DNA of 34,743 nucleotides from Candidatus Omnitrophota bacterium (GTDB lineage Bacteria; Omnitrophota; Gorgyraeia; 2-02-FULL-51-18), in the NCBI GenBank assembly GCA_023247935.1, contig JAHFFM010000002.1, positions 1 through 34,743 of the forward strand. The letters are read 5' to 3'. Of this stretch, positions 1 to 25,007 are shown piece after piece. The notes beneath the pieces were generated by a model, which did not search any database, was not told the origin of the DNA, and worked only from the letters and a program-made list of their open reading frames with translations. The stretch's first letter is position 1. The number at the start of each line of letters is the position of its first letter. Both the position numbers and the translations under genes were made by a program.

Positions 1-3000
1 CTTTGAGAGAAATTTTTCCACGAACGAAAAGTTTTTCTAAAGTCAGGTCTCTCATATAAGGAAAAATATTGACCACTCTATTTCCGACTCTTCCTACGAA
101 ACCGGGGATGAGATCCTGTGGGCCTTCATAACTTTTATCTTCGCGTATCTTTCCCAAAGTCCTAATCGCTCGAATGACTCGTCTTTCATTATCGTGCAAC
201 TGTTTGGCAAAATCCGTGAAATCTGAAACTTTGATGACCACGACCTCTCCTTTGGGAAACTTGGCTGCTTGCACCGCCCCCACGTCGGTTCCCTTGATGT
301 TGCCTATAAACTCGCATCGACCCCCGTCCAAAATCTCCCCCACCACTTCCCCGGAAAACCATTGGCGGGATTCGCCAGCCAGCCGCGCGCCTTTCTGGGA
401 GGCTGCGTTATTTTTTCGGATAAACTCTTCTAAAGTTCTATCCCCATCATCCTCATCCGGCACCAAATCCCCTGCATCAATCGCCACAAGTTCACCCGCC
501 CGCGTCACCCTATATTCGGTTGCCACGACAAAACCTGCTAAACGTAAAAGCTCATTAACAGTCAGGAAATCTTTGTGTTGTTCAGGAGTATTAGTATTGC
601 CTCCTAAAATAATTTGCATGACGTACCCCGTGACATCCCCGGACTCAACCACGCCGTAAAACTTGGCGCCGATCCCAAGCCGGTCTAACACCTGGGCATA
701 AATCAACTCTCCTGGAGAAAGGCCTCCTTTTCGATACAACTTCACGGCCACAGGCTGGACACGCCCATCGATTTTTGCCAAGCCTAGAAAAACACCCAAA
801 GAAGAGACAGATCTCTCCTTTTCACTTATTCTTGGCAAACTTCCGAGAGGCGATAAAAGCTTTATCTTTTTAAATTGATCGGGTTTTTGGGCAATAGGAG
901 CATAGGCAATTTCTCTTCTGTGATCCATGGCCCAAGCGACATTTTTAGGAGCTTTGGAAAAATCAGCGTGGTCATTTCTGATTTCAATCCCAAATTTTTT
1001 GAATTGATTGTCGTTGGCGAGTCGCGCAGCGGCAGGAATAGAGCGAGCTCTTACACCCTCTGGAAAACCGACGGATCCGCCGATGAATTGAGATCCTGGA
1101 GAGGTATTGGTAATGTTGTAATTCATCCACTTGAAAGAATCTGGGGGCAAAGCGTTTCTTTTCTCTTCGTTTAAGAGATTTCTCGGAGAACCAATAGAAG
1201 AACGCATGATCACAAAAGTACCTTGGGCATGGGGACTTAATGAAACATACGGTGTGAAATAAGCGCGCTTGGCAACCAGAGTGATGGTGCGAGAGTCTAC
1301 CGCGTTTTTATCTTCTTCACTGATTTCCGCCGGCTTAAAGTGCCATTCAGAAGGTTCCGGCGCCCATCCCCAATGGAGAAAAGCCCGATAAGTCCCGTCG
1401 CTCAAAGATGTTATAAATTGATTTCTTTCGTCCACTGTCGCGAATTGAAGTGTAGTTTTAAAATCTGCCCGTTGATCCTGATATTCCATTGAGCCGCCTT
1501 GCCACGCGAACGAGGATAAAGGCAACACCAGCGCTTCATCGATAAAGCGTTTGTAGTCTTTGATGCCCCAAACCTCGACACTTGGCAATCTCCGTCCGTC
1601 GGGTGTTTCCGTGTATTCGGAGCCGGGACCTTGTTCATGCAACACTTTTTCGTTGCGTAACACGCGCTCAAATACCTTGGCCAATCTCTTGAGACGCTCT
1701 CTATCGAATTTTTCGGAAGAAAATTCAAGCTCAAATTGACCTCTGTCATCAATCGCCAGCATCATCATCTCCGTGGGTTTTGATAAACTGGCTGATTCTG
1801 GCCTGCCATACCCATTAAAATGCGCTTTGATAATTAAGGATTCGTCGTATGACCGAGCATATTGATCAAGAATCTCCAAAACAGCGCTCGGACGCGCATG
1901 AATCCCTCGATGCGACAAAACACGCACCATCTCTGTATAATTCGCCAGTCGCGCGGCGGCTGCTTTGGGTTTGACTGCGGCTTCGAATCTAAAAAATTCG
2001 TTCACCTCTTGAACAAGCCCTTGCAATAATCGCGTGCTTCCATTCCATGAGGCTTGTTCTGCGGCAAAAAATAAACGCGCACTTTCCGAATTTACAACCA
2101 AGAGACTACTAAATCGGGCAAGTGCTTGTTTTATCTCATTAACACTAATTGTTTCTTTTGAGTCTCTAATAGTCCGAAGTAAGTGCGCCTTCCTATCAAG
2201 AATTTCTTGCGAACGAAGGTGTGCCTGTTTTTTTTGGAGGGCAAGCCCTCTCACGCGATTCATCAAAAACGATTCTTTTAGTTCCCGAGCCACTCTTATT
2301 TTTTTGCGTGCCTCCAATCTTGCGGTTCTACTCTCAAGCTCTGCTCTATAAAAAGTGGTTATTGCTTCGCCTGAAAACATTTTAGGAGCAACGCCTCTAA
2401 GAACTTGCTTCATTTTGGTAACAATTTTCAGTTTGTCTCCTGGAGAGATCAGGCGTGGATCAGAAAAAGTATCGTCATTTGTCAGCCTTTGTAGCATTTC
2501 TAGAAAAGGTTGCGCATCCGACACGGCCAGGGCTTTCAATCGAGTCACCAGATCGTACTCAGCATTTCTGGTAAGTTTTCCTTCGCAAAGAAGGATAAAA
2601 TCCGCTAAAACATCATCGGAAGATACCTGTCTTCCTGCTCCCCACGGAAAAGTATCTGCCGCCATCTGATCTGTCACGTCAATCGGATCACAAAAAGCAC
2701 CATCATGAAATAAAACAAAGTGTCGACTAACTTTATTTTTAGTATCGTAATACCATACGCCTCTAGCGTTTACTTTCTTACCCCCAATAGATACCCCGTG
2801 AAAATTCACCCAATAACGTTTTGTTTGGTTAGAGAGCCCAAAGCCGGATAAACGAATCTCGACTCGCTTTCCTTCCAAATTATAGAGGTGATCTGGTTTA
2901 CGATAAGCGATACTTACTAGATCAGCGTCAGAGTTGGGAAAAAACGTGCCGCCATTGGCAAGCCAATAAACATTCCACTGAGCTTTAGCGTTATTCGCCA

Positions 3001-6000
3001 TATGTGTTACTGTTGGGATTTGAGGTAAATGCCAATAACCCACCATGGGTTTACCTGCAACGTTTTGAGTGACAACTTGCCCGTTCTGATAGAGCACTAT
3101 GGAATCTAATGGGATTTCGGAATGCTGTCCTTTTTCTGAAGGCGCCCAAAGCGTGGCCACCCATGCGTCTTTTGCAATCCACGGAGCTCTTTGAATCTTA
3201 AGAATTGGTTTCTCAGCACTACGCCGATATACAAGACGCACATTTCGAGACCAAAAATTAACAGTATGGTCTTTTTGATCTAAAGAGAAAAGGCCTGATC
3301 CCCTCGGGAAAGAATCTTCAGTGATTACCTGGAGCTCCCAAGGAAGATCATCGTGTATAACGCCGGATAAAATCTCCATTTGTAAAAGTTTATCCGGAGA
3401 GGGCGATGAAAAATTCATGTGGCCAGTCACAAATTTTCCATCTCTAACAAAAGGATATCTAGCTGAGACAAAGCGCTTTCCTGTGTACTTACTAACCACA
3501 TGTAACTCAATGTCATAAGCATTGGGACCAAATTTGAAAACAGAGATCGTTGCAGTATCATCTCCTAAATAAATCGGTTTGCCAGTCGCGTAAACCAGAC
3601 CTCTCGAATCACTTTTCTTTTTAAAATACGTCGTTCCTACTTTCAACCTTCCATATTTTTTTCGTAAGGGCAACTGCCCCACCTCTCTCAAGCTAAAGGG
3701 GATCTCCTCATTCAGCTCCATGTACGGCAAAATATCGACAAGCCCCGCTAATCGGGTTACAAGTGTCTGTCCATTCAAAACGCCTTGATGAATTCTTGCT
3801 AAACGCGCGCCGGTGATTCGAGCTACCTCTTGTTTCACAAGACCTGTTTTATCGGCTAATGCAGGCTCACTATAACTTTTCCCGCCCGCCTCTTGATTCA
3901 GCCTTTCGCTTCTATAAAAAAGAGCGATGAGATGATCTTTCACGCTTCTACGATTTACATTAAAGATGGGCTGTTTTAGATAAATCCTAGCGATTTTTTG
4001 GAGATGGAGCGATTTTAATTTCAAAGCTTTATTCAATACTTCACGTTTCAGTTTCTGATCTTGGGTAGAATACGTTTTCGCCAGATAAATGGCTTCGGCT
4101 AATATTTCCTGATAAGCCACAGACCAGTGGCGATCATGAAATTGATCTTCTCTTGGATCAAAAACTTCATTCCCCACCGTTTGGATTTCATCAGATAAGA
4201 TTTGTATCGCCTCTGACCCGCCTTTCAACGAAAGCGTCATGGCCCAGATCCAATAGTGCTCATAATAACCTTCGGCATTCGTGACGATTTTAGATTTGCG
4301 CGTCTCTTCGACATTTGTAAATTCTAGTAGAGCGTCCACATAGTCCAGATAAAGGTCTTCATTCTTCCTCAGGTTTTGTGTAAAAGAAAACTCCAGAGCG
4401 AGACGAACCATCACTCCGGTAGCTTCGTAATTTCCTTGGGCATATTGTGCTTTCATCGAAACCAGTTGTTGAATTCGATCCAAAATATCGTTTTGATGTG
4501 TTTTTGCCAGCCTCAATACCTTTTCCAAAGAAACGTTCGGATTTTTTATAATCTCCCCGACTCTTTTCCGGTGCTTCTCTATCACCGCGTCCACAAACAA
4601 CAAATCGGGACTTGTTTTGGGCGCTTCCGCCAGACGAGCCCCCAGCTTTATCTTCAGTAGAAGTTGATGAGCCAGTAAGGTACTGGGAGGATGTTGACGG
4701 CCAGAGATCACCTGCCCTAAATAACCGTTGATCCAATACCTCGCCCCCTTATCCATTCCGGCTATCATCACCAGGATCTCGGAGGCCGCTTGCATCTCGA
4801 TAGCCTTTTTTCGCGACTGAGATTTAGGCGCGATGGCTACCAGCAGCAAACGGTAAAGAGTTCGTTTGGAAACTTTGCTCTTCCATGCCATCAATAAAAA
4901 GGTCGCGATTTCATTTTTGTAGGGCGGGTAATAATTTTCATTTTTTAAGTGCCCGATCAAAATGTCTACCGGATTATTTCGCCATTCATTTTTTCCTTTT
5001 GTAAAAAATAGAGGCCTTTGAGATTCGTCCTTGTTCTCCCATTCTCTCTGCCATTGCATCAAAAATTCCAAGGCTTCATTGGCGGGTTTCTCCGGAGCAT
5101 TGATTTTTATTTCGCTTAAACGATCTAAAATCTCGTGGAAGGAATCGTGATAACTTGCCAAACGCGCGCCTGCGCTTAAAACTATGGCATCGGGAAGATT
5201 CAATCCATCGGTAGAGTTAACAAAACGGCAAGTGCCAAGATTACGGCCTGAGCTGAAAGCTAAATCATTAGTTTCCCTGATATGCCTTTTGGTAGAAAAA
5301 ATAAAAGTCGCGCTAATAGAGGCGACCACGACTTCTTTGGCGCCACGCCAAAGAAGAGCCGCGGGTAAATAAGGATTCGTTTCGGAGATCCCCTCGACGA
5401 TGAAGGTTTTGTCTTGGACTTCGGCGGGCACCGACATGCCTTCCAAAAGCTCTCGAATTCCAACCGCCACTGGGTTTGCGCTTTTTATGTCGCCCTTTGA
5501 AATTACCGCTCCATCCCCATTATTTCTAGAAGCATACTCCAGTTCTTCCAAGATAACCGGCAACGCTTCTGTTCTAGAAAGGAGATCTCTCGCTTCATCG
5601 AAAATGGTGCTACGCCCTCTCACGCGGTTAGCAGAAACAGAGAGCAGATAAGTATCTTGAAAAAGACAGGCGCACACATAAGCCAATCGAGGCAAACGGG
5701 AATGCCCTGCTTTAAAATTTGCGAATGCATTGTAATCTTTGGCTTGGCAAGTATCTCTCAAAAACTCAAGCTGGCTTTTTGCCGGATTAGATCCTCTTAG
5801 TGACCGCAAAATATAGAACACCAGCGTCTGATCAAAAAAAGAGATGGTTTTTGGGTCATCCACCATCTTCCAGATAGCCGTAAAAGCATCCGCGTCAGTC
5901 GCTGGTTTTTGCGTCCAAGTCCCCTGCCGAATAAGTATTTCAGAAATCAGGTTGATCGCATCCCGATCCGGCGGCGCGATGGAATTTCTTTTCTTATCCT

Positions 6001-9000
6001 TAAAATGAAGCGCTTTTTTAAGAAATACAAGAAACCGTTTGGCTTCCCGTTGACGGCTCAATTCTTCAATCATTCGTATCGCCGCTGATTTTCTCGCAGT
6101 GAGTCGCGCACCTTCCCCAACCCGACCGAATATTTCGGGATGGGCGACAAATTCCGGCTCATTAACAGAGAAAGGACGGCCAACCAACGCGTCCAATCTT
6201 TGTTGGACAAAACCGGTCAACCAAAAATAGTCGTCTGGGTTTCGGCCGCTACCAAAAATAATTTCCCAAGACTTTCCAGAGGGTTTTAGCAAACGATCTT
6301 GATCATCAAATTTCAAAGCGATGGATGCGACATAATCGCCTTTCCAATTCGCCGCGTCATCCCAGCGCGCAGCATTCTTTACCGGCGTGACGCGAATATC
6401 GTATCGGTCTTGTTCCGGCGCCAAATCAAAATGGATCAAATACTCCCGTACAGGCTCTTCTTCCCCGCCTGCAGGGCCGGGCGCGATCCAATAAAAAGAA
6501 GCTAAGCGACGAGGGTCTCCATCCAAAGCCTCGATAAGGCTAGGTGTCGACCGTCGAGAAACCTGCATGACTTTCTGCCAATCTTCAAACCAGTCACGAA
6601 CCGTATCTTCCAACCATTCGTAGGAATTGTGTCCAAATAAGTAGAAGTCATCTCTAAAAATTTCAAGGGGCACGCCGTGTTCATCATTGCGCACCTGAAT
6701 ATACGCTCTTTGGGCTCTATGTTTAAGAGGTAGATTTTTAGGGGATAAATGCCGATGTTTATAAAAAATCAGTTCTTCTCTTCCGCGAGGAATCGGCGCT
6801 TCAGGCACAGGAAACACATAAATTTCATAGCTAGCGAATTCATAGTACCTGGGAAATTGCCATGAATCGTTTGAACGTTCGGGTTGGGAAAGCAGAACAA
6901 TGTAAGATTTGGCTGGATCTTTGGGATCCTGTACTTTTAAATAAATCCGGTAAGGCAAAAGTTCTCCCGCCATAAAAGTCGGTGCGACATAATTGCTCCA
7001 ATTTTTCTTAAGCGCGGATTCGGTACTGGCGTCCAGCTTCGTCTGAAGCTCTTCGGCGCTAATCATGTCTTTGCGGGCGGCCAGTTGTGAAAGCTGATTG
7101 GAAAAACGACCTTGTGCCCGTGGTCCCATGCCTTGAAAGGTGGCATCGGCACGTTTGATAGCGCCCATCAGAGCCTGAAGTTCTGGCTTTGCTTGCAACT
7201 CTTGAGAGACTAGATGGCTGTGAATCACATCGCCAAAATTTTTGTCTAAAAGTCCCAAGGGATCGCTGGCTCCAGGCACTGTTTGGATCGCCTCCCCAAT
7301 CAATATTTTATTGGCGCCCGCGCGGAACTTATTGAGAGCGTCTCTTTCTTTGCCCCAAAGCAACTGGATGCCATTATCCACCACCGTACTAAGGACTGGA
7401 GAAGAATTGCTCGACAAAACACCCGCCTTCGCGCGAGCCATGACGCGAGCGAGAACCGCTGGCTCATTGAACTGAAGAATAAAAGATTCGGCGATCGGCG
7501 CAGCCACTTGTTCTGCCACCACAGCCGCCGGTTCTGTGAGAGTCGACAAAATGCTGGAGGCTAGTGGAGCTGTCACAAACGCCGCCGTCACCCATTGGAA
7601 AAATGTACGGCGACTAATCACCGGATGACGATCCGCGAAGATTTGATAAAGTTTGAGAGTGAATGCCTCCCAGGATGTGTAATCTTTATTCAACAGAGTC
7701 GTCTTCGCCCAACGCGAAATCATAGGCACCATCTCGGAATAAAGTTCTTCGTGACCTTTTAGAAGCGCCTCAAATTGCCCCAAAAGCTCATTGTCGTTTA
7801 TCTCGGGATGTTTTAAAGAGGTTTGATAAATTTTCTCCGCCGCGTCGCCGATCAGTTGACTGATCCGAATCGCTCGCCCCGCCCGAGCCTGCGAATCCTC
7901 CGCCAGCCGTGCGCCGCCCGTCTGCTCATCATCGGGGATTCCAGAGAGGAGGCGCATGCTCTCTTCAAATTTTTCGGCTAAATTTAATATTTTGTCCCCA
8001 TGGGAATTAAATAGTCGTTCGCGTCTTTTGAAATACCTCTGAGCGATTTCTCTATTGTCCGCATCCCCATCGGTTTCTTTATTGCGCTCACCCAATAGAA
8101 TTCTCCAAATCCATCTGTCAAATGCCTCACTGCTCGTTCGGCGTGGAAGCTGGGCATGATAGGCCAAAAGATGCAAAAGACTGAGCATGCGGTCGAGATC
8201 GTCTCTCGAGATCTGTTTTTTCTGCTTAAATGAATCATAAATTTCCCGCACCTCTGTTATTTGCGTGAAATAATTAGCTTCAAAGTAAACCTTGGAAACC
8301 CCCGGCGCGACAACAACAAACTCACGAATCTTATTCAAATTTCGTTCGATACCTAACAAAGCCTCTTCCGCTTTCGCCCAGTCAAGGTCACCAGACTTTG
8401 GTTCCTCCGCCAGCCGCGCGCCGGCTTGAGGCAACTCGGCCATAATAGCTAGCCTAATTTCAGCCCAAGATTCTTTAATTTCCTGAAAAGCCACTTTAAA
8501 ATTGGAGAATTTTCCATTTAAACCGCTTCCACCATCAAATACAACCCAAGGAAAGTAGAAGCTGAGGGCTTGGTAAGGCACGGGTTGATCAAAACTTCCG
8601 TTATAATTCGAGGGGCGATGAGATGAGAAAGATCCGGTGGCAATGGTTTCCCCTATCAATAATTTAGAATCCATAAACTTCACCAAGCCCGCCAATTCAT
8701 CTTTGTGTTCTGCGATAAATTTCCTAAATTCGGTCACGTCATATTGATTGGCGGATTTGATCAGCTGATCCAACAACCCAAGCATGGCGTAGAACCGATC
8801 AGCGTCTAACCATTCACGATAACTTAATTTCTTTTTTACTCTTACTTTGTCATAAATCCAAAATTGAATTCCCGAACCTAAACGCTCCATATCCCCAAAT
8901 CGAGCGCGAATCTGCTCTACTTTTTCTGCCATAGTGGTATTTCCAATTTCAGGCAGTGACTCCGTCGCCGTTGCCAACCGCGCGGCTAGAGGTTTTTTGG

Positions 9001-12000
9001 CGACAATGAAAATATGGCTATTGGGATAAACTTCTCCCCTTTCCATCTCAAAGTCCTTCTTCCATCGGTCTTGCAAATAGGGAGCAATGTACGCTTCGAC
9101 GTGTTCGATTTCAAAATAATCTCCGAGTAGTTCTCTGTACTGGCTTTCCGTCATCTGGCCGGCTGACTCGTCCATATCTCGGTTCCAGAGATCCCCTTCA
9201 AAATAATATTTGCTTAAAAAATCATGCAAGTCGTAGCTTGAAAGGCGAACTTTTTTATGGGAATCGTCCGTATAAGAAAAAGAGATTTTCCGGTGCCGGT
9301 ATTCTTTTACAAATTTCTCAAACTTTTGCTTGGCATATTCCGTTTTTAAAAAAACTTCGACCTCGCGAGGCTCCGGCTTCACACCATCTCTAAAAATCAG
9401 AGTGCCACCCGGTTTGAGCAAATCTTGCGCAAGCTTCAACACGCGCCGACTCATTTCCCGTCCAAAAGAAACGTCGATCTCATGTAGAGTGCTTGAGATA
9501 ATCACCGTGCTGAATTGGCCTTTAAAATCACTGGGAATATTCCACTGCGTCAAATCATGCCTGTAAAATTCGATTTTAGGGTGATTTCTTCGGGCTTGTT
9601 TGAGAAGCTCTTCGTCAAACTCAATCCCAACGACTTTAGCATCAGGTAATTTTTGCTTAACCAGCCCCAAAATATCCCCCGCTGCCGAACCTAGTTCCAT
9701 AATTTGATCTCCGCGGACGTACTCCACCATCCGCGCCTTATCTTTCATTCCCAATAACAAATGCCCGCGCACATCTTGATCAGAAAAATCTGTTGGCTGC
9801 TTAACCAATGGTAATAATTGGACAAGTTCTTTTTGACTGAGTCGTTCAATCGCGGTATGGACTAAAATGTATTTTTTAGAACCTTTCCATAAAAAAGCCC
9901 ATGTGAATATCCCTCGAATAAATCTAAATTCCTTTCGGCTGGTCTTTTCCCGATAACTAAAATATTTCCTTAGCACGTCTTCGTTGACGACCTCCTCTTT
10001 TGTCAAAGAATAATTGAATCCCCAGATAAGCATCGCCTTCCACGCCGCCTTAAAAAAATGATCTTTGGCCAGCGCCATGATGTAGATCACTTCCCGCTCC
10101 GTCTCTCCGTACAAAGTTTCGGGAGCGGGTTGATTCTCCGCTAAACGTGCGGCGGCTTCGATTCCTTGCTTATCCCATGCTTTGCTGACCATTAAAAATA
10201 GCCAGGCGGTGATCTGAGAGAACTCCTTAAAATTTTTAAAATCTCCAATCGTTGAAATAACCCGGTGGGTTTGCTTGTCTAGAGCCATAGAAAGCTCCGC
10301 TGGACTTCCTTCAAAACGGGTATTCTCATAAACCAAATACTTTATAGCGATAACGTCGCGCGCTTCCCCCTCATCTACCGCCACCATCCCTTGAAAACGA
10401 ATCCCTATTTTTTTTCTGCCACCATTCACAGTCAATTCGATTTCAAGAGGCATCATCCAGCCATCGGAATTATCAAATTCTTTGGTAACCCTTGCGGTTG
10501 CCCCCGCCAGTCGCGCGGCTAATTTTCCTGTAATTCTTCCAACCTCCACTTCTAATTGACGATATCTATCCGAGTTTTTTACAAGTGCGATGGTGTGATA
10601 ATAAGGATCGTTTATCACCCGCTCGTATAGATCAAAAATATCTCCTTTTATACTCTCAGGCGCCGCTACAGTAACCGTTAAAAATCCGCCTTCTTTTATC
10701 CCAAGAAGACATAATCCAGTCCAGGAATCCATCCTAGTGAGACGAGATTTATTAGCGGCAAGGACACGTACCCCCGGAATATGGTTAACAAGCTCTGTTA
10801 AACTAACCAGACTTGTGGCAGGACGCCCATGGAGTTTTGGCCAAATAATCTTAAAATCTCTAGACTCAAGCTTCCCCCGCCTTGCCGTCAGCCGCGCGCC
10901 GCCTATTTTTCTAACTTCTAAAGTTAAACCGACTTTAGGAAAAGTCCCGAGCGGGTGTTGGTCTAAAGTAAAATTAAGATCGGCGTCGCTTCTTACGATG
11001 CCTCGAATGGGAGTCGCTTGTTCTTTGCCGTACTCATCGAAAATTTTTCGTATCATCGGACTCATTCTTCGCATGGTTTCTTCGCTGTCACTGATAAAAA
11101 GATGACCATGCTTGGGATTCAGCAGAGGAACAATGGGCGCAAACATGCCGTAGAGCTCTCCTTCGACTCTTCCATTCACCATATTCTGAGTTTCTTCATC
11201 AGCTCCAGGGACAGAAGACATCAATCGAATAGCCATAAGCATCCGCGTATTTCTGGTGACCGCATAATTGGGTACTCCGAACATCAATACATAGTTAAAT
11301 TTATTTTTGCTGGAAGCTTCCTGTAAATCTTGCCAGGAATCAAAATATTGAATGCTTTCGCTGACTTCGAGCTTGCGGTGCAAATGCTCTTGTATTTCTT
11401 GAACCATGTGATCCGTATCAATAGCTGTCACCTCAAGACCGCAGAAAGCCAACAGCGCCGGCATATAGTCCCGCCCACCGGGTCCAACCACCAAAACTCT
11501 TCTGCCTTTTTCTAATTTCATTGAAATCAATTTGAGAATAATTCGCTCTTGCTGAGCTTCATCAAAAATAGTCTCTCTTGAAAGCTGATTGATCTTCCGA
11601 AATGCTTGCCTAAATTCATCGGCGGATACAAGCGGTTTGTCTACCGACAGCCGCGCGCCTTCATTCCAGTCGCGCCCGAGCATATCCATGATGTCTTCTT
11701 GGCCTGTTTTCCATTTGTCTCCGCCATAGTAGTTGATTAGTGCTTTTTCTAAATTTTCGTTGGTATCAGCTACAAATACTTCTGCGTCAATATCCAAACT
11801 TTTGTCTTGAGATTTTAAGTAGCTCTTTGCGGTGATATCGATTGCAATATGATGCTTGCTAGACCAAATATAGGCTACTCCGTGATTCATAAACCTAACC
11901 GGTCCCGTTTGATCTAATTCATCACATCTCAGTATGTCTGCTGCAAAGCCTTTCATTAAACTTCTTAAAAGGTTGGCTAGACTCTGGCTCAGTTCAAAGC

Positions 12001-15000
12001 AATTATTAAGAATGTAGGTCTTCTGTCCTTTTTTCGCTGCTTTCCTCGCCTCATGCCGATGAATTCGCGTCACACCCGCCGCAATTTTTTTTGCGATAGC
12101 CTCATCTAAATTCCCATGAATACGAAGCATTGTTTTTCCAAATTTTCTATCAACAAACGTCCGCTCTCTATTGCCCACCATCCGTACTCCCGCCAGCCCC
12201 TCTTCCGCTGAAACTTTGGAGGCTAGCCGTGCGCCGTGTGCTCTTTCTTCCGGCATTAAAAAGTGTGCTTGGTAAGCCTCAAGCGCCATCCTTCGAATTC
12301 TTTCTGAAATTTTAGGATCCAGCGGGTCTTTGCCTACCACAAACGCTAGAAATTCATTCAATGGCTCTTCGCCCATCATCCGGGCAATCATCTCTGCTTT
12401 TAATTTGAGTTCTCCTTGAGCCTCAGTCCCGCCCCCTTGTGCAAATACATTGGTCAACGTAAACACTCGATCCGGCACAAATACCCCATTCGTCCACGTC
12501 GATTTTAGAGCGGCTTCGACCTCAATAATAATCTCGGCAATTATTTTTTTATGTTCCGCATAATCGTCAAAATATCCCTTCAATAATTTTTCGTCAGGAC
12601 GCAAAATGGCGTTCGCGCTTCCTTCCACATCCTTGGCATTCCGCGCATCCTTTTTGATGGCATAGCTCAGCGCATCGAAATGAGCCAACTCTTCATTGAC
12701 TGTGTCTTGAAGATATTGCCAATAAGCGGCTGGGTAGACGAGACCTTGTTCTCGAAGGGTTTCTTCTAATTGAGTCTGGATTGGAGAGGGATTTTTGTAA
12801 TCCCTGCCATGGAAATGAACATTGATCCAACCGAACGGATTTCTTCGATAGAGAGCTGGGTCGAGAGTGCCGTCTGGCAATTGGTTTTCTTTATCAGCGA
12901 GTATTTCTCTAGCCTTGTCCACCACTTTCAAGTCATGGTCTGCGACAGGGCCGGATACAACGATCACTACTTCATTTCTAGCGGGCGCTGTTTCTGCATG
13001 ACTGTAGATTTCGTAAGGATCATATACAAAATAAGTGGTCACTCGATGCCCATCGGGAGATATCAAGGGGAGTACTTTGTAAATTTTGCTAACAATCAAA
13101 AGTGTTCCCTTTGACTGAGAGACCGACTTCAATAAATATCCTTTAGTAATCAAGAAAGACTTGAAGTCTCCATTAAGGAAATCCCAAAGGTCTTCAACCT
13201 TTAATGAGCTTTTGGAATCAAAAAATCTTTTTGGAAATACCCCCTCTTCATCTATCTCTTTTAAAAGAGGTTCTATTTCTTGACGAAATTGGCTCATCGA
13301 AATCTCTTGAGCCATGCAAGAGATCATCAGCTCCCCTATTTTTGGTGCAAATCTGACATAAAACCACCGAGATGCCGGATCTTCGGCTTTATTTTCTGCC
13401 AAGCGCGCCCCACCCACGCTTCCAAGCGCGCGTAAGACTTTTTTTATTTCAGCGAGTGTCTTTATTCCGATCCCATCGATATCCAGTATTTGTTGGGGTG
13501 TTGCCGATTTGAGTTGGCTGAAATTTTTTATTTTGCCAGCTTTTAATTGCTCGGTTTTGCCGATAGGAAACTCACCAATTTTGGTTTTACCCGCAGGCTC
13601 GTATCTTCCTTGCTGTCTAGCTTCTCTCCATTTCTTAATATTTTCCCAGCGTCGCCATTCCTCCAAAGCGCTCTGTTTCATGGCATTAATGGCTTGCGCC
13701 GAAATACTCCTGCTCTTAGTAGAGAATTTTTTCAGATATTTCTTAGCAATAGACTCTTCGCTTTTATAGGTCGGGGAAATAAACAAGAGCCTTAAAACTT
13801 CTCTAAGCTGAGGACTGAGCCTGAGGAACGATTCTCTATTCCCTGCCTTCCAAGCCTCTACAAATTTTCCAGAAAGCTTTTGATGATATTCGTTTTGCCT
13901 GCTCTCATATTTTTTATCTACCATTTCATACAATTTTTTATAATTGATGGAACGTTTGCGAAAATATTGAGTCAGAGTCGCTCTTTTAATTCCCATAAGC
14001 TTAGCTGCCTCCGAAACTGCAAGGCCTTTGAGGGATTTTTTATGCTTCTCCAGAAGAGCAGGAATTTCAGAGGGCACACCTGGCTCTCCCTTTACGATTC
14101 CATAGTCGGCAGGATCCTCTTCCGGATGTCGTTCAAAATATAAAAAAAGAGAAGGGTTGCTCACCCCCATCAATCTCGCAGCTTCTCTAAAACTGGGCTT
14201 TTCCCGTTGAAGCAATCGTTTATATTTCCTTAAAAGGGGTCCAACAATAGCCCTCTTAGTGGGCTTTTTTTGCACCATTTTTTTCGCCAGCCGCGCACCC
14301 GTTCCCAGCTTCTTATATTTCTCTTTCATCGCTTGCCATGCGGCTTGGTCTTGGATCGGGCCTAATCGCCGCTCCATATCCTTAAAAAATAAATCAAAAT
14401 TAACCCCATTTGAATTTGGGTCTATGTAGCAATAAACCTGACTGGTATGCGCCGATTCTTTTCCCAGAACCGGTAGAAAATTTCTAGTATCGAAATCCAC
14501 GAAGAAGCCATCTCCACCATATCTGTAGGGGAACAGATGGATATTTCTTGGGGACAAAGCGAGACGATTGATATCGTTGGCAAGATCGTAGACCCAACGC
14601 TCTTCAACAGGAGGCAATAGGGGGGCGCTTGATTTCTCAATCCAATCTACGCTCTCAAGGAGTCGTTTTTTAGCTTTTTCCCAACGTGCTAACACTTCAG
14701 AATATCGTGCTGTAAATCGCTCGCGCGTTAAACCTCCGCTCTTTTCGAGATCAAGAATTGCCTTGGAAGTGATGGCGAAATATTGACGAGCGCTAATTCC
14801 CTGTAAATTCTCCGTTCCTCCATAAGCTTGGTGCTTCTTCGCCCAAGCGACCAACTCATCAATATCCTGAGGCTGTAAAAACATCTGAAACTCGGCGTCC
14901 ATATGCGCCAAAACATCCCTGACAGTCCCTACGCGGAACTGGGTTTTAGCAGAATCGATTTTTAAACTTTCATAATTATCAGAGAACCTTTGTCTTCCAT

Positions 15001-18000
15001 TGCCTAGATTGTGTAACAAAGCATTAGCAATAGGATATTCCCTATCTTCGTGAATTAATGTGTAAAGATCTTGCTCATAAATCCTTTTCATTTCAGCGAC
15101 GGCCTCCATACCCTCTTCCCATGCCGTCAGTCGCGCACCGCGGATGATTTCCAGGCGCGTGATGTTCGGCATTTTGACAAATTTGGCAGAGTCCAGACCG
15201 AATTTGGATTTCAACCGGTTCAGATTTAACGTCGAGATACCGGGGCCTTCATCAAAAACAATGATGCGCAGACTGCCACCGACCTCCTCTTGGCGAATAA
15301 TAATGGCTGGATCGTCATACCTAAATTTTTCATTTTCTCCGGTGATCCATGTAGCTTTAAAGATCGATCGAAAAAGTGGCTCGACCTCTTCAAATTTGAC
15401 GCCCTTTATCTTTTCTTCAAAACTTTGCCTTAGAATCGCCAACGAATTTTCCACGAACAACTTGCGCGGCATCCGAACCGTGTAGCCGCCCACATTTCCT
15501 TTTGCCGCCGGAACGTCATAATAATGATAATGATGTTGCGCCACGATTCCCGGCTGCTTTCTCAAGTGGTAGATAAATTGATAGTAATGATTCTTATCGA
15601 CTTGTTTCCGACGCTCAAGCTGCATGGCTTCGATGAGGCGGTCGAAAATCGCTGGATCAAGGGGCTTTTGGTTTTCCTGTCGTATCCGCTTCTGATCTTT
15701 TTTCCAGCGTCTATACAATAAGTCAGACAGAGCCTCAAAATTTTTGCGATTAGAAGCTAGCGGAAATAAATAAGTGTCGACCGAGCCCAAATCATAATGA
15801 ATCTGCACTCTGATTTCACTTCTGTCATTGGGATAGTCAATCTCAAGCATAGCGTTTTCATCGAGAAGTTCGACCTGATAAGACATCATGCCATAATGGT
15901 CGACAACGGTTGCCGGGTAGGGACGGCTCCGAACGAGCTCGACGATTTCCTCGAACGTGAGAAGTTCTCTAGCTGATGTTTTTGGTGTAAGCCCGATTTT
16001 GGAATGAGAAATAGAAACAGGATCTTGAGCAGTCAAAACCACTCCATACGCGTAATTTCTTAAAGCGTTAGCGTCATCTTTGGGTAAAATAAAAACCTGG
16101 GCGTCAAACCCGCGCTGCTTGTAAAAATACCGGATGGTAGCAGGGCTTACCAAGCGATTATGATTGGCCGCCATACGCGATGTAATGGACTGGTCTGTGC
16201 TCCACCAACCTTCCAGTGTTTTCTGCCGACGGATAATTCTATTAAGACGAGCGAGAGAGTTTTCTTTAGGATGCTTGGCAATGTACTCGAAATCCTCATA
16301 GGACGTTCCCCGATGCTGGGTGCCTTCTTGTTGCATTTCTATTCCCTGTTGTTCCAACAACGCATGAACCCGCTTCATCAACTTTTCGTACTGAGTCTTG
16401 TCTTGAACGGTTTTTAATAAGCTTTCGGCCAATCGAGTAATAAACAAGCTCCGGCTCAAATAGCTCTCATGAAAATCATTCCAAATAGTTTCAAGACGAA
16501 GATCGTCACTGCCAGGCGCATCGAACAAAACAACGGCCTTGCCCCCTTGCCTCAAAACTCTTCTCATTTCAACGGCGCCCTGGTGGAGATTCAAATAACC
16601 TTGCGTAAACGAAGAAACAACAAAATCGCAGGAGTTCGTGGCTAAAGGTAGGTTTTCGGTTTGAGTGCGGCGATAGCGAACATGGCGCGCCGGGCTTTTG
16701 ACAAACCGGGTTTTGGGAAACACGTCGATAGCAGTAACCGTGCCGCTGGGTCTCGATTTGGCCATGGCATTCGCGAGCCACAAATGAGGCCCTGAGCCGA
16801 TGTCAGCCATTCTCAAAGGAGTCCCAGGCTCAAACGTTTCCAATTCATGCAGTACAAACCTCTCGAACATCGCCGGGTAATACTGGTCGAAGCGGCGTTT
16901 ATGGTAAGTATTCTCGGGTAAAAAACGCTCTTTCCATCCTTTCATCAACCTAGATGGTAGCGAGTCGTTGCGCAGGGATTCAAATGCTATAGATCCAACA
17001 CCACTCGAAAGCCGCGCGCCGGCTTTTAGTTTCTTCGAAGCTTGCGTTAGATTTTTAATGCGTTGAATACCTTTGGAAGACTGTGCTCGATCATAAATAC
17101 TTAAAATTACTTCTGGGGCTTCCTCTCGTCTGGAGCTCAATACTTGAAAAGCCTGATGGAGCTTACCTTCATACTTAATGGCAAAAAGTAGTGCCGCTTT
17201 TTCAACTTTCTGCACAAAACCGTCGATAACGGCGTCCGCAAATTTTTTAGAGGAATCCACGAAAAGAACCTGTTCGTTCAAAACCACATGAAGAGGTTTT
17301 TTTAGGCGCTGCGCTTCGTCCAGAAGACTGGAAAAAACAACTCCGAGACATCCCTCGATGGATCCTCCAGCGATAATCACATGTAAAATCGGCTGACCGG
17401 ATAATTGTTTCAGAACAGACCGAATCGTTTGATGCATGTGGGTTTCATACCAATGAGCAATAATCCGGTCTATTTGCTTTTTCGTGAAGCCCTGCGATCT
17501 CAGCGTTACTTCTGTCGGCTTTTGATTCGTCCAAAAATAATGACTGCCCTCTTGCCTTAAAAATCCTCTGTCTTTAAGTTTCCGAGTTAAGCTTTGATCA
17601 TGCCCAGGATCAACAAAATAGCGTTCTCCAACATTGTCGCTATAAGTCACTCTTGGCCAGCGCGCGACATTCGTCTCCCCAAAAATTTGAATTCCTGCTT
17701 TCGCCAATGCTGCCATGTTTTCGCCAACAGCAACCAGACCTTCTTCCTCTTCACCGGCCGCAAAATGATTTACAACAAACAAAGCCGCTTTTTCATTTGC
17801 TAGCCGGGCACCTTCTTCCACGCGTCCCAATCTGACGGTGCTGATGGGTTCCATGAGTGAAGCGGCGACTAATGTGTTGGCGTCGGCTAAAGATAATTTG
17901 GAGGCGTCGGCTGTAAGGACTTTTTTATTTCCCGTGAGAGGCTCCAAAAGAATCGATTCGTATTTTTTGCGATTGGTTTCGCCAGTGACGGTTGGAGTGA

Positions 18001-19989: not shown

Positions 19990-20015
19990 GTGCGGATAAA
20001 CTTTTGGAGTTTTTA

Positions 20016-20381
20016 ATGTCTTTGCTTCATGATTATTCGTACGTCCTCGGCTTTCTGATTATCGGAATCGGCTTCGTTGTCGTCAACAGCATCCTCCCCC
20101 TTCTCTTAAGTCCCAAAAGCCGCGGCTCCCGCGCGAACGACCCTTACGAAAGCGGTGAGGTGCCTATCGGTAACGCGTGGATCCAGTTCGACATCAATTA
20201 TTATCTTTTCGCTTTGATTTTTTTGGCATTCGACGTGGAAGCGGCGTTTTTATTTCCCGTACTCGTCGTCTACCGCTCCATGCTGAGTTGGGCGATGTTT
20301 TTAGAAATCGCCTTATTCTTAGCGCTACTGAGCTTCGCGATACTTTACGCCTGGAAAAAAGGACTTTTTGAATGGAAATAA
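20016..20381 (+). CDS. nuoA: NADH-quinone oxidoreductase subunit A
   Basis: It carries the ND3/NuoA signature ...DPYESGE...[25 protein letters not shown] prefer ATG 20016 (GGAG 6 nt upstream) over the track's TTG 20004, which sits too close to the predicted -10. Confidence 0.9.
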
Positions 20382-21040
20382 AAGCCGGCCTCGACCACAA
20401 TCCTGAATATTTGAATACACAGTCGCCCGCACCGGGACTGGTCAACATGTTCCGCGTCGAGGATGTTTTAAATCTGGCTCGCGCCAATTCGCTTTGGCCC
20501 CTCACTTTCGGTTTGGCCTGCTGCGCAATTGAGCTCATGGCCGGCGGCGCTGCGCGTTTTGACATGGATCGTTTTGGATTTGGCGTGTTCCGTCCTTCGC
20601 CTCGCCAAGCAGACTTGATGATTGTCGCCGGCACGATTTCCCGCAAGATGGTTCCTTGTATCAAAACTTTGTATGACCAAATGCCCTCCCCCAAATACGT
20701 GATCGCGCTCGGTGGATGCGCCACCGCCGGCGGACCGTTTAAATTTCCCGGCCAATACGGCATTCTTGAAGGCATCGACAAAATTATTCCGGTGAATGTG
20801 TATGTGCCGGGCTGTCCACCGCGTCCCGAAGCGCTGATCGCGGGCATTATGGAACTTCAAAAACAAATTAAGGCTGGAAAAACGCAAGGCGTCATGTCCC
20901 CGGCTTCTTGCAATGACTCTCAGGATGGCCGTCCCGCGGAATACAAAAACGCGATTTCCCGGGCGGATTTCCGCAAACCCGTTCCACCGCCTGCGCCGCC
21001 AGCTCCTCCCGCAGCGGCTGCCGCTCCGACAGCGAGTTAA
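20372..21040 (+). CDS. nuoB: NADH-quinone oxidoreductase subunit B (N2 cluster subunit) with Pro/Ala-rich C-terminal tail
   Basis: Conserved motifs are [28 protein letters not shown] and [11 protein letters not shown] (Cys ligands). It overlaps the nuoA stop by 10 nt. The tail is [21 protein letters not shown]. Confidence 0.9.
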
Positions 21041-21044
21041 TCCG

Positions 21045-22682
21045 ATGCCCGCCACACAAACCACGATGAAAGATTGGCTTTTGGAAGTCATTAAGCCCGA
21101 AGAATTGAACGAAAAAGATTTTGTGAAGTCGGGCATTCTCTTTGAAGCGATTGTGCCTCAAAATAAAATCGCCGATGTCGCGCACGAATATTTAAAACAA
21201 GGTTATTTCCTAGAATCCCTCACCGCCGTCGATTTTTCCGACTGCTTTGAGCTCGTTTATCATTTCAACCAGTGGGAAAAAACTTCCCGCTCCGTTATCA
21301 AAGTTTTGATCACCAAAGAATCCAATCAAGCCCCTTCGATCAGCTCGGTTTACAAATCTGCGAATTGGTTTGAGAGAGAAATTTTTGACATGTTCGGCGT
21401 TCAATTCACCGGCCATCCCAATTTAAAACGCATTCTGCTTCCCGAAAGCGCTACGATTTTTCCCCTCTTAAAAAGTTTTAAAGGCGAGGCCAAGGGATCG
21501 GACGTCGTTCAATCCTTAAAGCTCATCGAAGAAGATGCCGCCGAATTTGAAGTGCAAAAAAAAGGGCCCGTTGTCCTCGAGAAAAGCAAAAAAAATGCCA
21601 AAGATTATTATTTGAATCTCGGACCCCAACACCCCAGCACACACGGCGTTTTGAGAGTGCTGCTCCATCTTTCCGGCGAACGCGTTCTCGACGGCGAACC
21701 CGTAATCGGTTATTCGCATCGTCATCACGAAAAAATGATGGAGATTCAAAACTATCTGGCTTGCTGGCCTAATTTTGGTCGTCTCGATTATGTGGGCGCC
21801 ATGAGTTACAACTTTGGCTACGCGCTTCTCATCGAAAAAGCGATGGGTGTCACGCCGCCGCCGCGCGTCGAGTACATTCGCGTACTCACCACCGAGCTCA
21901 ATCGTATCGCGAGCCACCTTTTGTGGATGGGCACTTTCTTGCTCGATCTGGGCGCCTTCACCCCCTTCTTTTATTGCTTCGATGATCGCGAACAGATTTT
22001 AGACATTTTGGAAATGGCCACCGGCGAGCGTCTGACCTACGATTATTTCCGTTTCGGCGGTGTGGATCATGACATTCCCGAAGAAACCGTGCCCGCCGTC
22101 AAAGCGTTTATCGCGCATTTCAAAAAACGCCTCAAAGATTACAACGGACTCGTGACTAAAAATATTATTTTCCAAAAACGCACTCAAGGGCTCGGTATCT
22201 TGACCAAAGAACAGGCGCTGGCATATGGCGTAACCGGTCCGATGCTTCGCGCTTCCGGCGTTTCTTACGATTTGCGCCGCCAAGAACCTTATTCCATCTA
22301 TCCGGAGCTTGATTTTGAAGTACCGACGGCAACCGACGGCGACGTTTATTCCCGCTACTTGGTGCGCAACCGCGAAATTGAAGAGAGTTTAAAAATTATC
22401 GCTCAAATCATCGACAAAATTCCGGCGGGTGAATTCAAATCCGGAAAATTGCCGAAAAATGTGCCCAAAGGCGAATACTATTCGGCCGTCGAAGGTGCGA
22501 GAGGTTCTTTTGGCATCTATCTGGTGAGTGATGGCACGTTAAACCCGTACCGGATCAAACTGCGCACGCCTTCTTTCTCTAATTTGAACGCTTTTATCGA
22601 GCTTTTGCCGGGCTGCCTGATTTCCGACGTGATCGCGGTACTGGGCAGCACCGACATTGTACTTCCGGAGATTGATCGCTGA
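21045..22682 (+). CDS. nuoCD: Fused NADH-quinone oxidoreductase subunits C and D
   Basis: The NuoC motif is NWFEREIFDMFGVQFTGHPNLKRILLPE. The NuoD motifs are LNLGPQHPSTHGVLRVLL and RTPSFSNLNAF...DIVLPEIDR. The start is set at ATG 21045, just after the nuoB stop. The track's upstream extension (20913) overlaps nuoB. Confidence 0.9.
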   Translation: MPATQTTMKDWLLEVIKPEELNEKDFVKSGILFEAIVPQNKIADVAHEYLKQGYFLESLTAVDFSDCFELVYHFNQWEKTSRSVIKVLITKESNQAPSISSVYKSANWFEREIFDMFGVQFTGHPNLKRILLPESATIFPLLKSFKGEAKGSDVVQSLKLIEEDAAEFEVQKKGPVVLEKSKKNAKDYYLNLGPQHPSTHGVLRVLLHLSGERVLDGEPVIGYSHRHHEKMMEIQNYLACWPNFGRLDYVGAMSYNFGYALLIEKAMGVTPPPRVEYIRVLTTELNRIASHLLWMGTFLLDLGAFTPFFYCFDDREQILDILEMATGERLTYDYFRFGGVDHDIPEETVPAVKAFIAHFKKRLKDYNGLVTKNIIFQKRTQGLGILTKEQALAYGVTGPMLRASGVSYDLRRQEPYSIYPELDFEVPTATDGDVYSRYLVRNREIEESLKIIAQIIDKIPAGEFKSGKLPKNVPKGEYYSAVEGARGSFGIYLVSDGTLNPYRIKLRTPSFSNLNAFIELLPGCLISDVIAVLGSTDIVLPEIDR

Positions 22683-23662
22683 TGCCATTTCTCGACTCAC
22701 TCCCATTCGTTTTGCGTGAAATCCTCACGATTGTTATTTATGGGACACTGGTCATTCTCTTTTTGTCGGTAAACGCTCTCTTTTTGGTGTGGGCGGAGAG
22801 AAAAGTGTCCGCTCGCATCCAACTCCGTCGCGGCCCCCTGCATGTGGGTTTTGCGGGCATGCTACAAACCGTCGCCGACGCAATCAAACTTCTTTCCAAA
22901 GAGCTGGTGATTCCAAAACAGTCTGATAAATTTGTCTACCTTCTGGCGCCGGTTCTGGTGTTCGCGCCGATTCTCTCGGCGTTCATCATTATGCCGTTGA
23001 GCTCCAACTTCATTATTCGCGACTTGAATGTCGGATTTCTTTTCGCGTTTTCGCTGACCAATATCTCTTTTATTGGGATTTTTATCGCCGGCTGGTCGTC
23101 TAATTCCAAATACGCGCTCTTAGGTTCGATGCGCGCGGTCGCTCAAAATATTTCTTATGAAATTCCTCTTCTTTTATCCACCATGGGCGTTGTCCTGATC
23201 GCTCAAACAATTAAAATGACTGAGCTGGTGAACGCTCAAGCCAATATTTGGTATGTCGTGCTTCAACCCGTCGCCTTTATTATCTTTATCTGTTCGGCCT
23301 TGGCCGAGGCTAATCGCGCGCCCTTCGACATTCCCGAAGCGGAGTCGGAGCTTGTGGCCGGTTTTCACACCGAATATTCGGGCATGCGTTTCGCGCTTTT
23401 CTTTCTTGGAGAATATTCGGCGATTTTCGTGTCTTCCGCCATCGCGACCACCCTGTTTTTGGGGGGTTGGAGAGGCCCTCTGCTTCCCGGACCCATTTGG
23501 TTCTTGATCAAAGTTTATGCCATCGTTCTAGTCATCATGTGGATACGCTGGACATTTCCGCGTTTGCGCAGTGATCAGCTCATGGCCTTTGCCTGGAAAG
23601 TTTTGATTCCGTTTGCACTCGTGAATCTGTTTTTAACGGCGTTAGTTCTGAAACTTATTTAA
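22682..23662 (+). CDS. nuoH: NADH-quinone oxidoreductase subunit H
   Basis: Motifs are AERKVSARIQLRRGP and NRAPFDIPEAESELVAGFHTEYSGMRFALFFLGEY. Its ATG overlaps the nuoCD TGA. Confidence 0.9.
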   Translation: MPFLDSLPFVLREILTIVIYGTLVILFLSVNALFLVWAERKVSARIQLRRGPLHVGFAGMLQTVADAIKLLSKELVIPKQSDKFVYLLAPVLVFAPILSAFIIMPLSSNFIIRDLNVGFLFAFSLTNISFIGIFIAGWSSNSKYALLGSMRAVAQNISYEIPLLLSTMGVVLIAQTIKMTELVNAQANIWYVVLQPVAFIIFICSALAEANRAPFDIPEAESELVAGFHTEYSGMRFALFFLGEYSAIFVSSAIATTLFLGGWRGPLLPGPIWFLIKVYAIVLVIMWIRWTFPRLRSDQLMAFAWKVLIPFALVNLFLTALVLKLI

Positions 23663-24696: not shown

Positions 24697-25007
24697 TGAG
24701 CCAATCCCTGCAAAGCTACCTTTTAATCTCTTCGATTCTTTTGGCGACCGGTGTTTTCGGCCTTCTTTTCCGCCGTAATCTCGTAGCGCTTTTGATATCA
24801 CTGGAGCTTATTTTAAATTCCGCCAGCATCAACTTCATGGCCTTCAATAAATTCACGATGCCCGACAAATCAACCGGCCAGGTTTTTGTTATTTTTATTA
24901 TCGCGTTGGCGGCGGCGGAAGTTTGCATCGGCCTGAGCTTGATTTTACTGCTGTATCGCAAGAAAAATTCCATCAATATCGAAGAAGCAAAGGATTTGCA
25001 AGGTTAA
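24696..25007 (+). CDS. nuoK: NADH-quinone oxidoreductase subunit K
   Basis: It has about 100 aa and three transmembrane segments. The ND4L-like motif is SLELILNSASINF. Operon position supports the call. Confidence 0.85.
   Translation: MSQSLQSYLLISSILLATGVFGLLFRRNLVALLISLELILNSASINFMAFNKFTMPDKSTGQVFVIFIIALAAAEVCIGLSLILLLYRKKNSINIEEAKDLQG

Follow-up and report, generated by a model that had tools for sequence, protein, structure and literature searches.

The giant open reading frame and its pentapeptide sites

We analysed 34,743 nucleotides of DNA from a Candidatus Omnitrophota bacterium (contig JAHFFM010000002.1 of assembly GCA_023247935.1, positions 1 to 34,743 of the forward strand), referred to here as the window, in which a short peptide motif, [GA]ARL[AST], recurs along one giant gene. 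The stop-free minus-strand frame of this gene extended from 19537 to 2, comprised 6512 codons, and left the window at its start. Its probable start was the TTG at 19522, with the Shine-Dalgarno-like sequence GAAGG upstream, giving an open reading frame (ORF) of at least 6,507 amino acids (aa) whose 3' end lies outside the window. The ORF was predicted to encode a modular precursor, consisting of a signal peptide, an N-terminal domain (N-domain), and then at least 20 modules bounded by the motif. Sites are numbered below by residues of the open frame; the original prediction, which had pointed out the motif, counted residues from the TTG, so that its numbers equal the open-frame numbers minus 5.

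2..19522, minus strand: giant ORF, stop-free frame with TTG start and upstream GAAGG, its N-domain conserved in Omnitrophota
19439..19522, minus strand: Sec-type signal peptide predicted from sequence, MNSRKPISIRAISFLLVFTFLLSDLAWA|SP, with positive n-region, hydrophobic core and A-x-A site
17924..19399, minus strand: N-domain, approximately residues 42-533 counted from the TTG (alignments A1-A3, AlphaFold2 model)

The motif was found at 20 sites in the giant frame, all on the minus strand and in one stop-free frame, exactly where they had been predicted.

17798..17812, minus strand: site 1, GARLA, residue 576, in a low-confidence stretch past the N-domain
17006..17020, minus strand: site 2, GARLS, residue 840
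15125..15139, minus strand: site 3, GARLT, residue 1467
14285..14299, minus strand: site 4, GARLA, residue 1747
13397..13411, minus strand: site 5, GARLA, residue 2043
12221..12235, minus strand: site 6, GARLA, residue 2435
11645..11659, minus strand: site 7, GARLS, residue 2627
10886..10900, minus strand: site 8, GARLT, residue 2880
10505..10519, minus strand: site 9, AARLA, residue 3007
10139..10153, minus strand: site 10, AARLA, residue 3129
8972..8986, minus strand: site 11, AARLA, residue 3518
8408..8422, minus strand: site 12, GARLA, residue 3706, its DNA the exact consensus GGCGCGCGGCTGGCG
7901..7915, minus strand: site 13, GARLA, residue 3875
6098..6112, minus strand: site 14, GARLT, residue 4476
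5156..5170, minus strand: site 15, GARLA, residue 4790
4628..4642, minus strand: site 16, GARLA, residue 4966
3797..3811, minus strand: site 17, GARLA, residue 5243, preceding module A, homologues of which occur in other giant proteins
1943..1957, minus strand: site 18, AARLA, residue 5861
1016..1030, minus strand: site 19, AARLA, residue 6170, in the opening turn of the N-terminal helix of a kinase-like module
377..391, minus strand: site 20, GARLA, residue 6383, past the kinase-like module, where model confidence collapses

From the composition of the protein itself, 0.107 sites were expected, and in 2000 residue shuffles the count averaged 0.109 and did not exceed 2. The enrichment was therefore about 190 times the expectation, with GARLA alone present 10 times against 0.02 expected. 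The earlier rough estimate of about 0.1 was thus accurate, and the composition-matched shuffle left the enrichment intact, which rules out chance or composition as the source of the motif. By contrast, the weaker relatives of the motif that had been listed need no explanation: the giant protein contained 5 other ARL tripeptides (LARLI, LARLN, AARLM, TARLE, and SARLF) versus approximately 3.9 expected, and LARLI sits within the folded N-domain. No positional conservation was observed outside the five motif residues in the window, where the information content of the flanks at positions -1 to -15 was 1.1 bits or less.

Modules, relatives, and codon choice

The Pfam content of the giant protein was limited to S-adenosylmethionine (SAM)-dependent methyltransferases and a helix-turn-helix, each located within one motif-bounded segment, which agrees with the earlier placing of recognisable modules between the sites. 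One further module was delineated by HMMER, alignment A4, AlphaFold2 (AF2), and Foldseek.

16532..16804, minus strand: SAM-dependent methyltransferase, module 3 (PF08241, E 4.3e-10)
13922..14032, minus strand: helix-turn-helix, module 5 (PF01381, E 4.9e-5)
9392..9703, minus strand: SAM-dependent methyltransferase, module 11 (PF08242, E 2.3e-11)
392..1030, minus strand: module 20 (module B), kinase-like, residues 6170-6382

When residues 5243-6442 were searched exhaustively with HMMER against 1.84 billion proteins, 37 matches were obtained that resolved into two modules, one of which was segment 20. This module was also present in short proteins (P0068 and P0085) and in many other giant proteins, where its position varied widely. 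Its conserved core started about 8 residues past site 19 and ended about 15 residues before site 20. Several homologues carried equivalents of both sites at its two boundaries, namely GARLA and GARAA (alignment A4) and GGRLA (L023) for site 19, and GARVA, GARLV, and GARMA (alignment A4) and GSRLA (L023) for site 20. In the AF2 model of residues 6101-6512, the predicted local distance difference test score (pLDDT) was above 90 over model residues ~71-280 and below 50 on either side. Foldseek matched this region to protein kinases (E 1e-4), and the segment, which is ~210 aa long and has a V-A-V-K strand, appears to adopt a minimal protein-kinase-like fold. At the other end of the protein, site 1 was preceded by a stretch with pLDDT below 50, past the N-domain. 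Positional conservation in homologues and placement at the edges of folds had both been proposed as checks on the motif; the former was seen at both kinase-like-module boundaries in several homologues, and the latter at sites 1, 19, and 20.

The homologue search with residues 6-1000 returned 50 proteins, and those with a named source were nearly all from Candidatus Omnitrophota or from the same metagenome-assembled genomes (MAGs). They were alike over the first ~540 residues only and diverged completely after that. With each species represented by one genome, at least 578 loci encoding the N-domain were detected, and single genomes held several paralogues. Judged from these homologues, the giant protein is one of many paralogs in an Omnitrophota family whose members are composed of a signal peptide, an N-domain of ~500 aa, and a variable chain of modules. 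Comparison of the whole giant protein with 130 family proteins by BLAST gave three module matches only, and residues 2880-3879 and 835-1752 had zero homologues in a word-index search of 5.8 billion clustered proteins. The modules of the giant protein are largely orphan sequences. The orphan regions (window 7901-10900 and 14282-17035, minus strand) include the two methyltransferase modules.

The motif was present throughout this family; a search for it in homologous giant proteins had been suggested. Eighty Omnitrophota locus ORFs (L001-L080; 164 thousand aa, GC 38-67%) contained 217 strict [GA]ARL[AST] sites, or 255 when Met was also permitted at position 4, compared to ~10 sites in ~278 thousand aa of other reading frames of the same loci with neighbouring giant ORFs set aside. 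The database homologues contained 44 sites in 57 thousand aa. The family logo was [P/S/T]-x-S-G-A-R-[L/M]-A-E. The family flanks were clearly enriched in Pro, Ser, and Thr (Pro 2-2.7 fold at -2 to -5, Ser 3.8 fold at -1) and depleted of hydrophobic residues, and upstream information content at -1 to -15 was 0.56 bits or less. In most members the first site was located 60-135 aa past the GGYHT of the N-domain, i.e. just beyond the end of that domain, and the median spacing between sites was 289 aa, the size of a whole enzyme.

The motif also varied between lineages. GARMA replaced it in L013 (eight times), L015 (six times), P0058, and P0079. L062 carried G-S-R-x-A eight times, keeping G-S-R and the Ala two residues on with position 4 free, while x-A-R-F-T-E, without Gly, occurred six times in L066 and TDASGAAPQ four times in L076. 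A different sequence, [A/S/T]-G-L-E-E, punctuated other multi-module secreted proteins (P0071, P0081, and P0062), all without the Tiki-like N-domain described below. The 1252-aa P0071 (L081:10001-13759) had eight such sites, one of them directly past the signal peptide, and its kinase-like module was flanked by AGLEE on either side. P0071 and L077, a protein consisting of the N-domain only, came from one MAG. A basal N-domain clade lacked the G-A-R motif.

In the window and its relatives, none of ~14 Pfam hits spanned a site, while ~4 sites would be expected inside those domains given about one site per 300 residues and ~1,300-1,500 residues covered. One ORF of a relative (L068:9986-21655, plus strand) encoded malate synthase, isocitrate lyase, a 2-hydroxyacid dehydrogenase, and adenylate kinase in one segment each, in a GARLA-bounded chain behind a signal peptide and N-domain. 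Profile position 1 of its isocitrate lyase (E 5.5e-108) began 14 aa past a GARLA. Enzymes of the glyoxylate shunt would thereby form part of a polyprotein. In L057, a GNAT domain filled a 195-residue segment and an HATPase_c domain stopped 5 aa short of a site. Modules of the relatives included isocitrate lyase, malate synthase, kinases, methyltransferases, and CsrA, and a census of 125 segments found 38 Pfam families that were unrelated to one another. Segments with a match mostly held a single family, and most segments gave no match. The window itself appears to hold self-contained units within one ORF, since its two predicted methyltransferases, its helix-turn-helix, and its kinase-like fold fall in separate segments. 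The short conserved sequence likewise appears to lie at the junctions and not inside the units, because no Pfam hit of the ~14 spanned a site, three sites were at AF2 fold edges, and the motif was aligned at both boundaries of module B.

We further compared the motif at the level of peptide and DNA. The codons had been described as differing synonymously from site to site, with conservation at the level of the peptide and not of a copied DNA element; this was largely borne out, but a real codon bias had been overlooked. In the window, the Arg codon was CGN at all 20 sites versus 63% in the background, the Ala codon was GCG at 15 of 20 and the Leu codon CTG at 10 of 20, and the Gly codon GGA was never used. 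Among the imperfect DNA repeats that a repeat finder detected in the gene, the motif made up the largest family, with 11 copies of 20 nt. DNA similarity between sites was confined to ~15-20 nt. Searching the consensus GGCGCGCGGCTGGCG with up to 3 mismatches yielded 15 matches versus 0.87 expected, 14 of which were motif sites. All 14 in-gene near-matches were in frame and on the coding strand, with differences that were synonymous or within A/S/T, and no out-of-frame or antisense near-match was found in the gene at that threshold. The remaining 6 sites were more than 3 nt off GGCGCGCGGCTGGCG and still encoded the peptide. A copied DNA segment or repeated domain was ruled out by the unconserved flanks and the shortness of the DNA similarity, as was a frame-independent DNA element by the near-matches lying all in frame on the coding strand. 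GCGCG-type words were otherwise not unusual in the DNA. Across 261 family sites from the same 80 ORFs, every synonymous codon of Ala, Arg, and Leu occurred, with AGR at 51 of 261. Nevertheless, GGC, GCG, CGG, and NTG were over-used at the motif in low-, mid-, and high-GC relatives (for CGG in low-GC ORFs, 52% at the motif versus 12% background), while third positions of flanking codons were ordinary and flank GC3 equalled the background. We conclude that the peptide is probably the main selected unit, with an extra codon preference remaining beside it.

The signal peptide and N-domain were the parts that the family shared. Only two hydrophobic peaks were observed in the giant protein, the signal peptide and a moderate one near residue 717 within a module, and no transmembrane helix array was found in it. 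Residues 7-28 of the signal peptide were helical in AF2, and homologues showed a matching signal-peptide architecture. The N-domain was modelled with a pLDDT of 86.4 as an alpha/beta core interrupted by a helical insert of ~310 aa, with the fold ending at about residue 533. Its invariant or near-invariant residues were HIQDAH (H76, D79, and H81), E109, E146, E162, R462-D463, and GGYHT (H490); among these, HIQDAH, E109, E162, R462-D463, and GGYHT were invariant. Seven paralogues of ~550 aa (L024, L027, L040, L069, L072, L075, and L077) carried a signal peptide and N-domain without the chain of modules, and could be trans-acting versions of the domain.

The giant gene is divergent from the nuoA-N operon for NADH:quinone oxidoreductase (20004-29794, plus strand), in which the 30-kDa and 49-kDa subunits are fused (nuoCD, 589 aa). 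Minus-strand genes downstream of the operon encode a SMP-30/gluconolactonase-like protein, a PUA-domain SAM methyltransferase, and an AsmA/DUF748 protein. Rfam and tRNA scans and an NCBIfam search gave no matches. In several relatives, very long open frames, some of them motif-bearing, lay just upstream of family genes (L020:3-9752, L063:2-4852, L038:2-9064, and L073:1-9897, plus strand), which suggests tandem arrays of giant polyprotein genes. In L016, an in-frame TAA (L016:14252-14254) occurred 13 codons past a GARLA and was followed by 2012 open codons with four further motifs; sequencing error, fission of the gene at a junction, and read-through are possible explanations. Stops shortly past a motif (L016 and L038) were no commoner than chance.

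The motif as a proposed junction signal and its alternatives

The motif is real, conserved mainly as a peptide, family-wide, located at module boundaries, and variable between lineages. We favour, at about even confidence, the interpretation that it serves as a signal at the junctions and is recognised by a factor specific for its sequence, such a factor most likely being an endopeptidase that processes a polyprotein. A protein reader specific for the sequence is proposed because five residues are sharply kept in otherwise unconserved junctions and are swapped for other motifs in other lineages. According to this interpretation, one ORF would give rise to a precursor made of a Sec signal peptide, a hydrolase-like N-domain, and a succession of enzymes and regulators, self-contained and unrelated to one another, in which each junction carries G-A-R-[L/M]-[A/S/T]. 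A sequence-specific endopeptidase would then cut the precursor into separate proteins, so that many products would be co-expressed from one ORF. Of the original suggestion that the motifs mark module boundaries and serve as processing sites, the boundaries were supported by pLDDT, alignment A4, the absence of spanning Pfam hits, and the whole-enzyme segments, and cleavage at the sites is what we infer from them. Candidate scissile bonds are G-A|R, R|L, and L|A. The Arg is probably the specificity anchor, because across the Arg-containing variants (GARL, GARM, GSRx, and ARF) no other residue is retained throughout.

The leading candidate for the processing enzyme is the N-domain itself, since it is the sole constant part of the family and has a distant likeness to a superfamily that includes the TIKI protease. 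It is a weak candidate, and we consider this assignment rather doubtful. The erythromycin esterase EreC (6xcq and 6xcs), its relatives BcR135/136 (3b55 and 2rad), and ChaN (2g5g) were among the top non-coiled Foldseek hits of the N-domain, and the PF04187 profile ('Tiki superfamily, ChaN') was matched below threshold in 16 of 52 members, always at profile positions 132-205 and in the same C-terminal region. A PDB profile search with the N-domain gave nothing meaningful. The N-domain therefore appears distantly like the Tiki/ChaN/erythromycin-esterase superfamily, and we treat it as like, not as a member. Speaking against the candidate, the Foldseek matches were non-significant (E 0.2-1.7, TM 0.22 or less), and the best PF04187 match (E 2.4e-4) reached 21.6 bits versus a cut-off of 27.7. 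Moreover, the Tiki superfamily also holds esterases and haem-binding proteins.

Several further observations weigh against processing at the motif. Cytoplasmic-type enzymes are odd cargo behind a Sec signal peptide. Some long members (e.g. L064 and L071) and some giants containing module B (e.g. P0057 and P0080) had no recognisable motif, and the L-to-M switches at position 4 formed no clean pattern on the N-domain tree, on which only presence versus absence of the motif followed the deep clades. The codon preference GGC-GCG-CGG-CTG-GCG, which does not extend beyond the five codons of the motif, shows that the peptide level by itself does not account for everything. The flanks had been described as linker-like, and in the window their mean hydropathy did not differ from that of random positions (p=0.43); what stood of this description was a slightly lower hydrophobic fraction (p=0.015) and the Pro, Ser, and Thr enrichment in the family. 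Protease sites are more often in extended loops, whereas AF2 set site 19 (model residues 70-74) in the opening turn of the first helix and site 20 (model residues 283-287) within a helix, where confidence collapsed. Finally, no peptidase was identified by Pfam in the giant protein or its neighbours. The last two observations would also fit a short linear motif that is never cleaved, acting as a docking or recognition peptide or helix-start element for a common partner (a chaperone, an export or assembly factor, or a scaffold), or fixing how far apart and in which orientation the modules lie in a megaprotein that stays intact. By its composition, S/T/P-x-S-G followed by A-R-L-A-E can be read from helix propensities as an N-cap plus strong helix formers, and the multi-enzyme Omnitrophota giants have been treated as intact membrane-associated proteins (10.64898/2026.06.07.730766). 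However, a generic cap would not hold one exact pentapeptide at ~190 times expectation, nor would it be swapped wholesale for AGLEE, ARFTE, or TDASGAAPQ, and the modules have unrelated folds and share nothing else. The binding partner is just as hypothetical as the protease. We regard an uncleaved motif as a serious but minority possibility.

It is improbable that the nucleotide sequence GGCGCGCGGCTGGCG was partly or mainly what selection acted on, as a recombination or gene-conversion hot spot for in-frame shuffling, a site at which RNA is processed, or one at which translation pauses, with the peptide as a by-product. The strong codon preference limited to the motif in all GC classes, the rank of the motif as top DNA repeat family in the gene, and the excess of near-matches would agree with such an element, and modules do move between proteins; GCTGGCGG also differs by one base from the E. 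coli Chi sequence. On the other hand, the in-gene near-matches kept frame and strand in 14 of 14 cases, the peptide persisted at the six divergent sites, every synonymous codon family was used with AGR included, and L/M/V/F at position 4 as well as AGLEE fit peptides and not one DNA word. The analogy with C39-type double-glycine (GG/GA) sites, cut after G-A, was among the ideas of the original prediction. G-A preceded the Arg at 15 of 20 sites and A-A at 5 of 20, which would fill the GG/GA/GS P2-P1 positions if the cut were there, and C39 domains have been found near the N-termini of other Omnitrophota giants (West-Roberts et al., 10.1101/2023.11.21.568195). The analogy was not supported, as no conserved amphipathic leader was present upstream in the window or the family at the information contents given above, no C39 domain was found by Pfam in any segment or in 10 neighbouring ORFs, conservation was strongest on the would-be P' side (R-L-A), with the Arg kept rather than the G-A pair, and L066 used x-A-R-F-T-E without Gly; we consider this mode of cleavage very unlikely. 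We give hardly any credence to position 4 (Leu or Met; often CTG, TTG, or ATG) being an internal or leaderless start from which modules are translated separately. NTG accounted for 63-83% of position 4 versus 35-49% in the background, and the A/S/T at position 5 is a small residue that would permit Met removal, but non-NTG Leu codons occurred at 26% of family sites and 7 of 20 window sites, Shine-Dalgarno-like sequences upstream were not enriched (4 of 20 versus 13.5% background), the G-ending bias extended to all five codons beyond position 4, and an unbroken 19.5-kb frame would be unnecessary. A signal peptidase I-type A-x-A reading of S-G-A|R was dropped for want of an adjacent hydrophobic region.

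Taking the junction signal of a processed polyprotein as the starting point, we tentatively propose a broader scheme, which we think may be right but would not expect to hold in full: an 'operon-in-one-ORF', in which an exported precursor that unites dozens of unrelated enzymes carries lineage-specific junction codes (GARLA, GARMA, GSRxA, ARFTE, AGLEE, and TDASGAAPQ) with co-evolving endopeptidases, the Tiki-superfamily N-domain acts as the enzyme for the GAR-type codes, and the preferred codons aid in-frame exchange of modules. For the giant ORFs of Omnitrophota (up to >100,000 codons), it has been a puzzle whether they yield single megaproteins or are cut into pieces. The motif gives the first concrete candidate cut sites for such proteins, offers a principled way of splitting them for structure prediction and annotation, and directs attention to the constant domain at the N-terminus as a possible processing enzyme. 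If cleavage is true, the motif and its protease could serve as an orthogonal cleavage tool.

Comparison with known systems

Cleavage of Omnitrophota giants was proposed by West-Roberts et al. in 2023, with the cleavage points unknown, which blocked even a computational dissection (10.1101/2023.11.21.568195). The reports cited here on Omnitrophota giant proteins (10.64898/2026.06.07.730766; West-Roberts et al. 2023, 10.1101/2023.11.21.568195; Seymour et al. 2023, PMC10066038) make no mention of a motif repeated at junctions, of a linker code, or of cleavage points. The motif therefore appears to be undescribed so far, in agreement with the original prediction, which knew of none of its kind. 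The multi-enzyme giants of the phylum (10.64898/2026.06.07.730766) have in common with the present family very long ORFs, an N-terminal signal peptide, many unrelated Pfam families, and mostly unannotated sequence. The family showed these class features, with the ORF of the window itself having few Pfam hits. What defines the family described here is the Tiki-like N-domain, as opposed to C39 or S8 peptidase or dockerin domains, and it has no transmembrane helix array.

The TIKI/TraB/PrgY/ChaN/erythromycin-esterase superfamily is reported to have been characterised by Bazan et al. in 2013 through paired G-x-x-H motifs with a conserved Glu and Arg. The N-domain resembles it in an alpha/beta core with a helical insertion, the C-terminal G-x-x-H (the invariant GGYH), and invariant His, Glu, Arg, and Asp, including E109, E162, and R462. 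It differs in that its N-terminal motif is H-x-Q-D-A-H, i.e. HIQDAH without the Gly, and not G-x-x-H, in that its ~310-aa insert is much larger, and in that all matches are below significance or thresholds. TIKI1, which belongs to this superfamily, is a metalloprotease that cleaves Wnt (cited in PMC8191133).

The MARTX and clostridial glucosylating toxins are likewise large secreted modular precursors of unrelated effector domains (PMC2900308, PMC2780291), and the CPD of MARTX cuts after Leu between effector domains (PMC2780291). A cut in inter-domain linkers after Leu would be compatible with G-A-R-L|A, should processing occur here. Unlike in MARTX, housekeeping-type enzymes are among the modules here and the junctions carry a fixed pentapeptide rather than Leu plus a small residue, and the giant protein gave no Pfam hits for RTX repeats or Peptidase C80 at E up to 0.01. 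The polyvalent proteins of phages and conjugative elements combine 2-15 unrelated catalytic domains with an embedded peptidase and predicted autoproteolytic release (Iyer et al. 2017, PMC5512222). They share with the giant protein the joining of unrelated catalytic domains, including methyltransferases, in one polypeptide. They belong to mobile elements, carry zincin-like MPTase domains, and have no described junction motif, whereas the gene here is chromosomal and has a constant N-terminal Tiki-like domain. A phage, plasmid, or conjugative-element context was not seen, the gene being flanked by the nuo operon and by rRNA-methyltransferase-like and AsmA-like genes.

In viral polyproteins, such as those cut by picornavirus 3C or coronavirus Mpro, one ORF yields many mature proteins through short conserved junction sites with a lineage-specific consensus. 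The motif is similar in forming a short conserved junction with unconserved flanks and a consensus specific to the lineage. The giant gene differs in lying on a bacterial chromosome beside the nuo operon, without viral context, and in having module sets that are highly variable between paralogues. If cleavage does take place, the giant gene and its relatives would represent a cellular counterpart of viral polyprotein expression, serving in the relatives for isocitrate lyase, malate synthase, and other enzymes.

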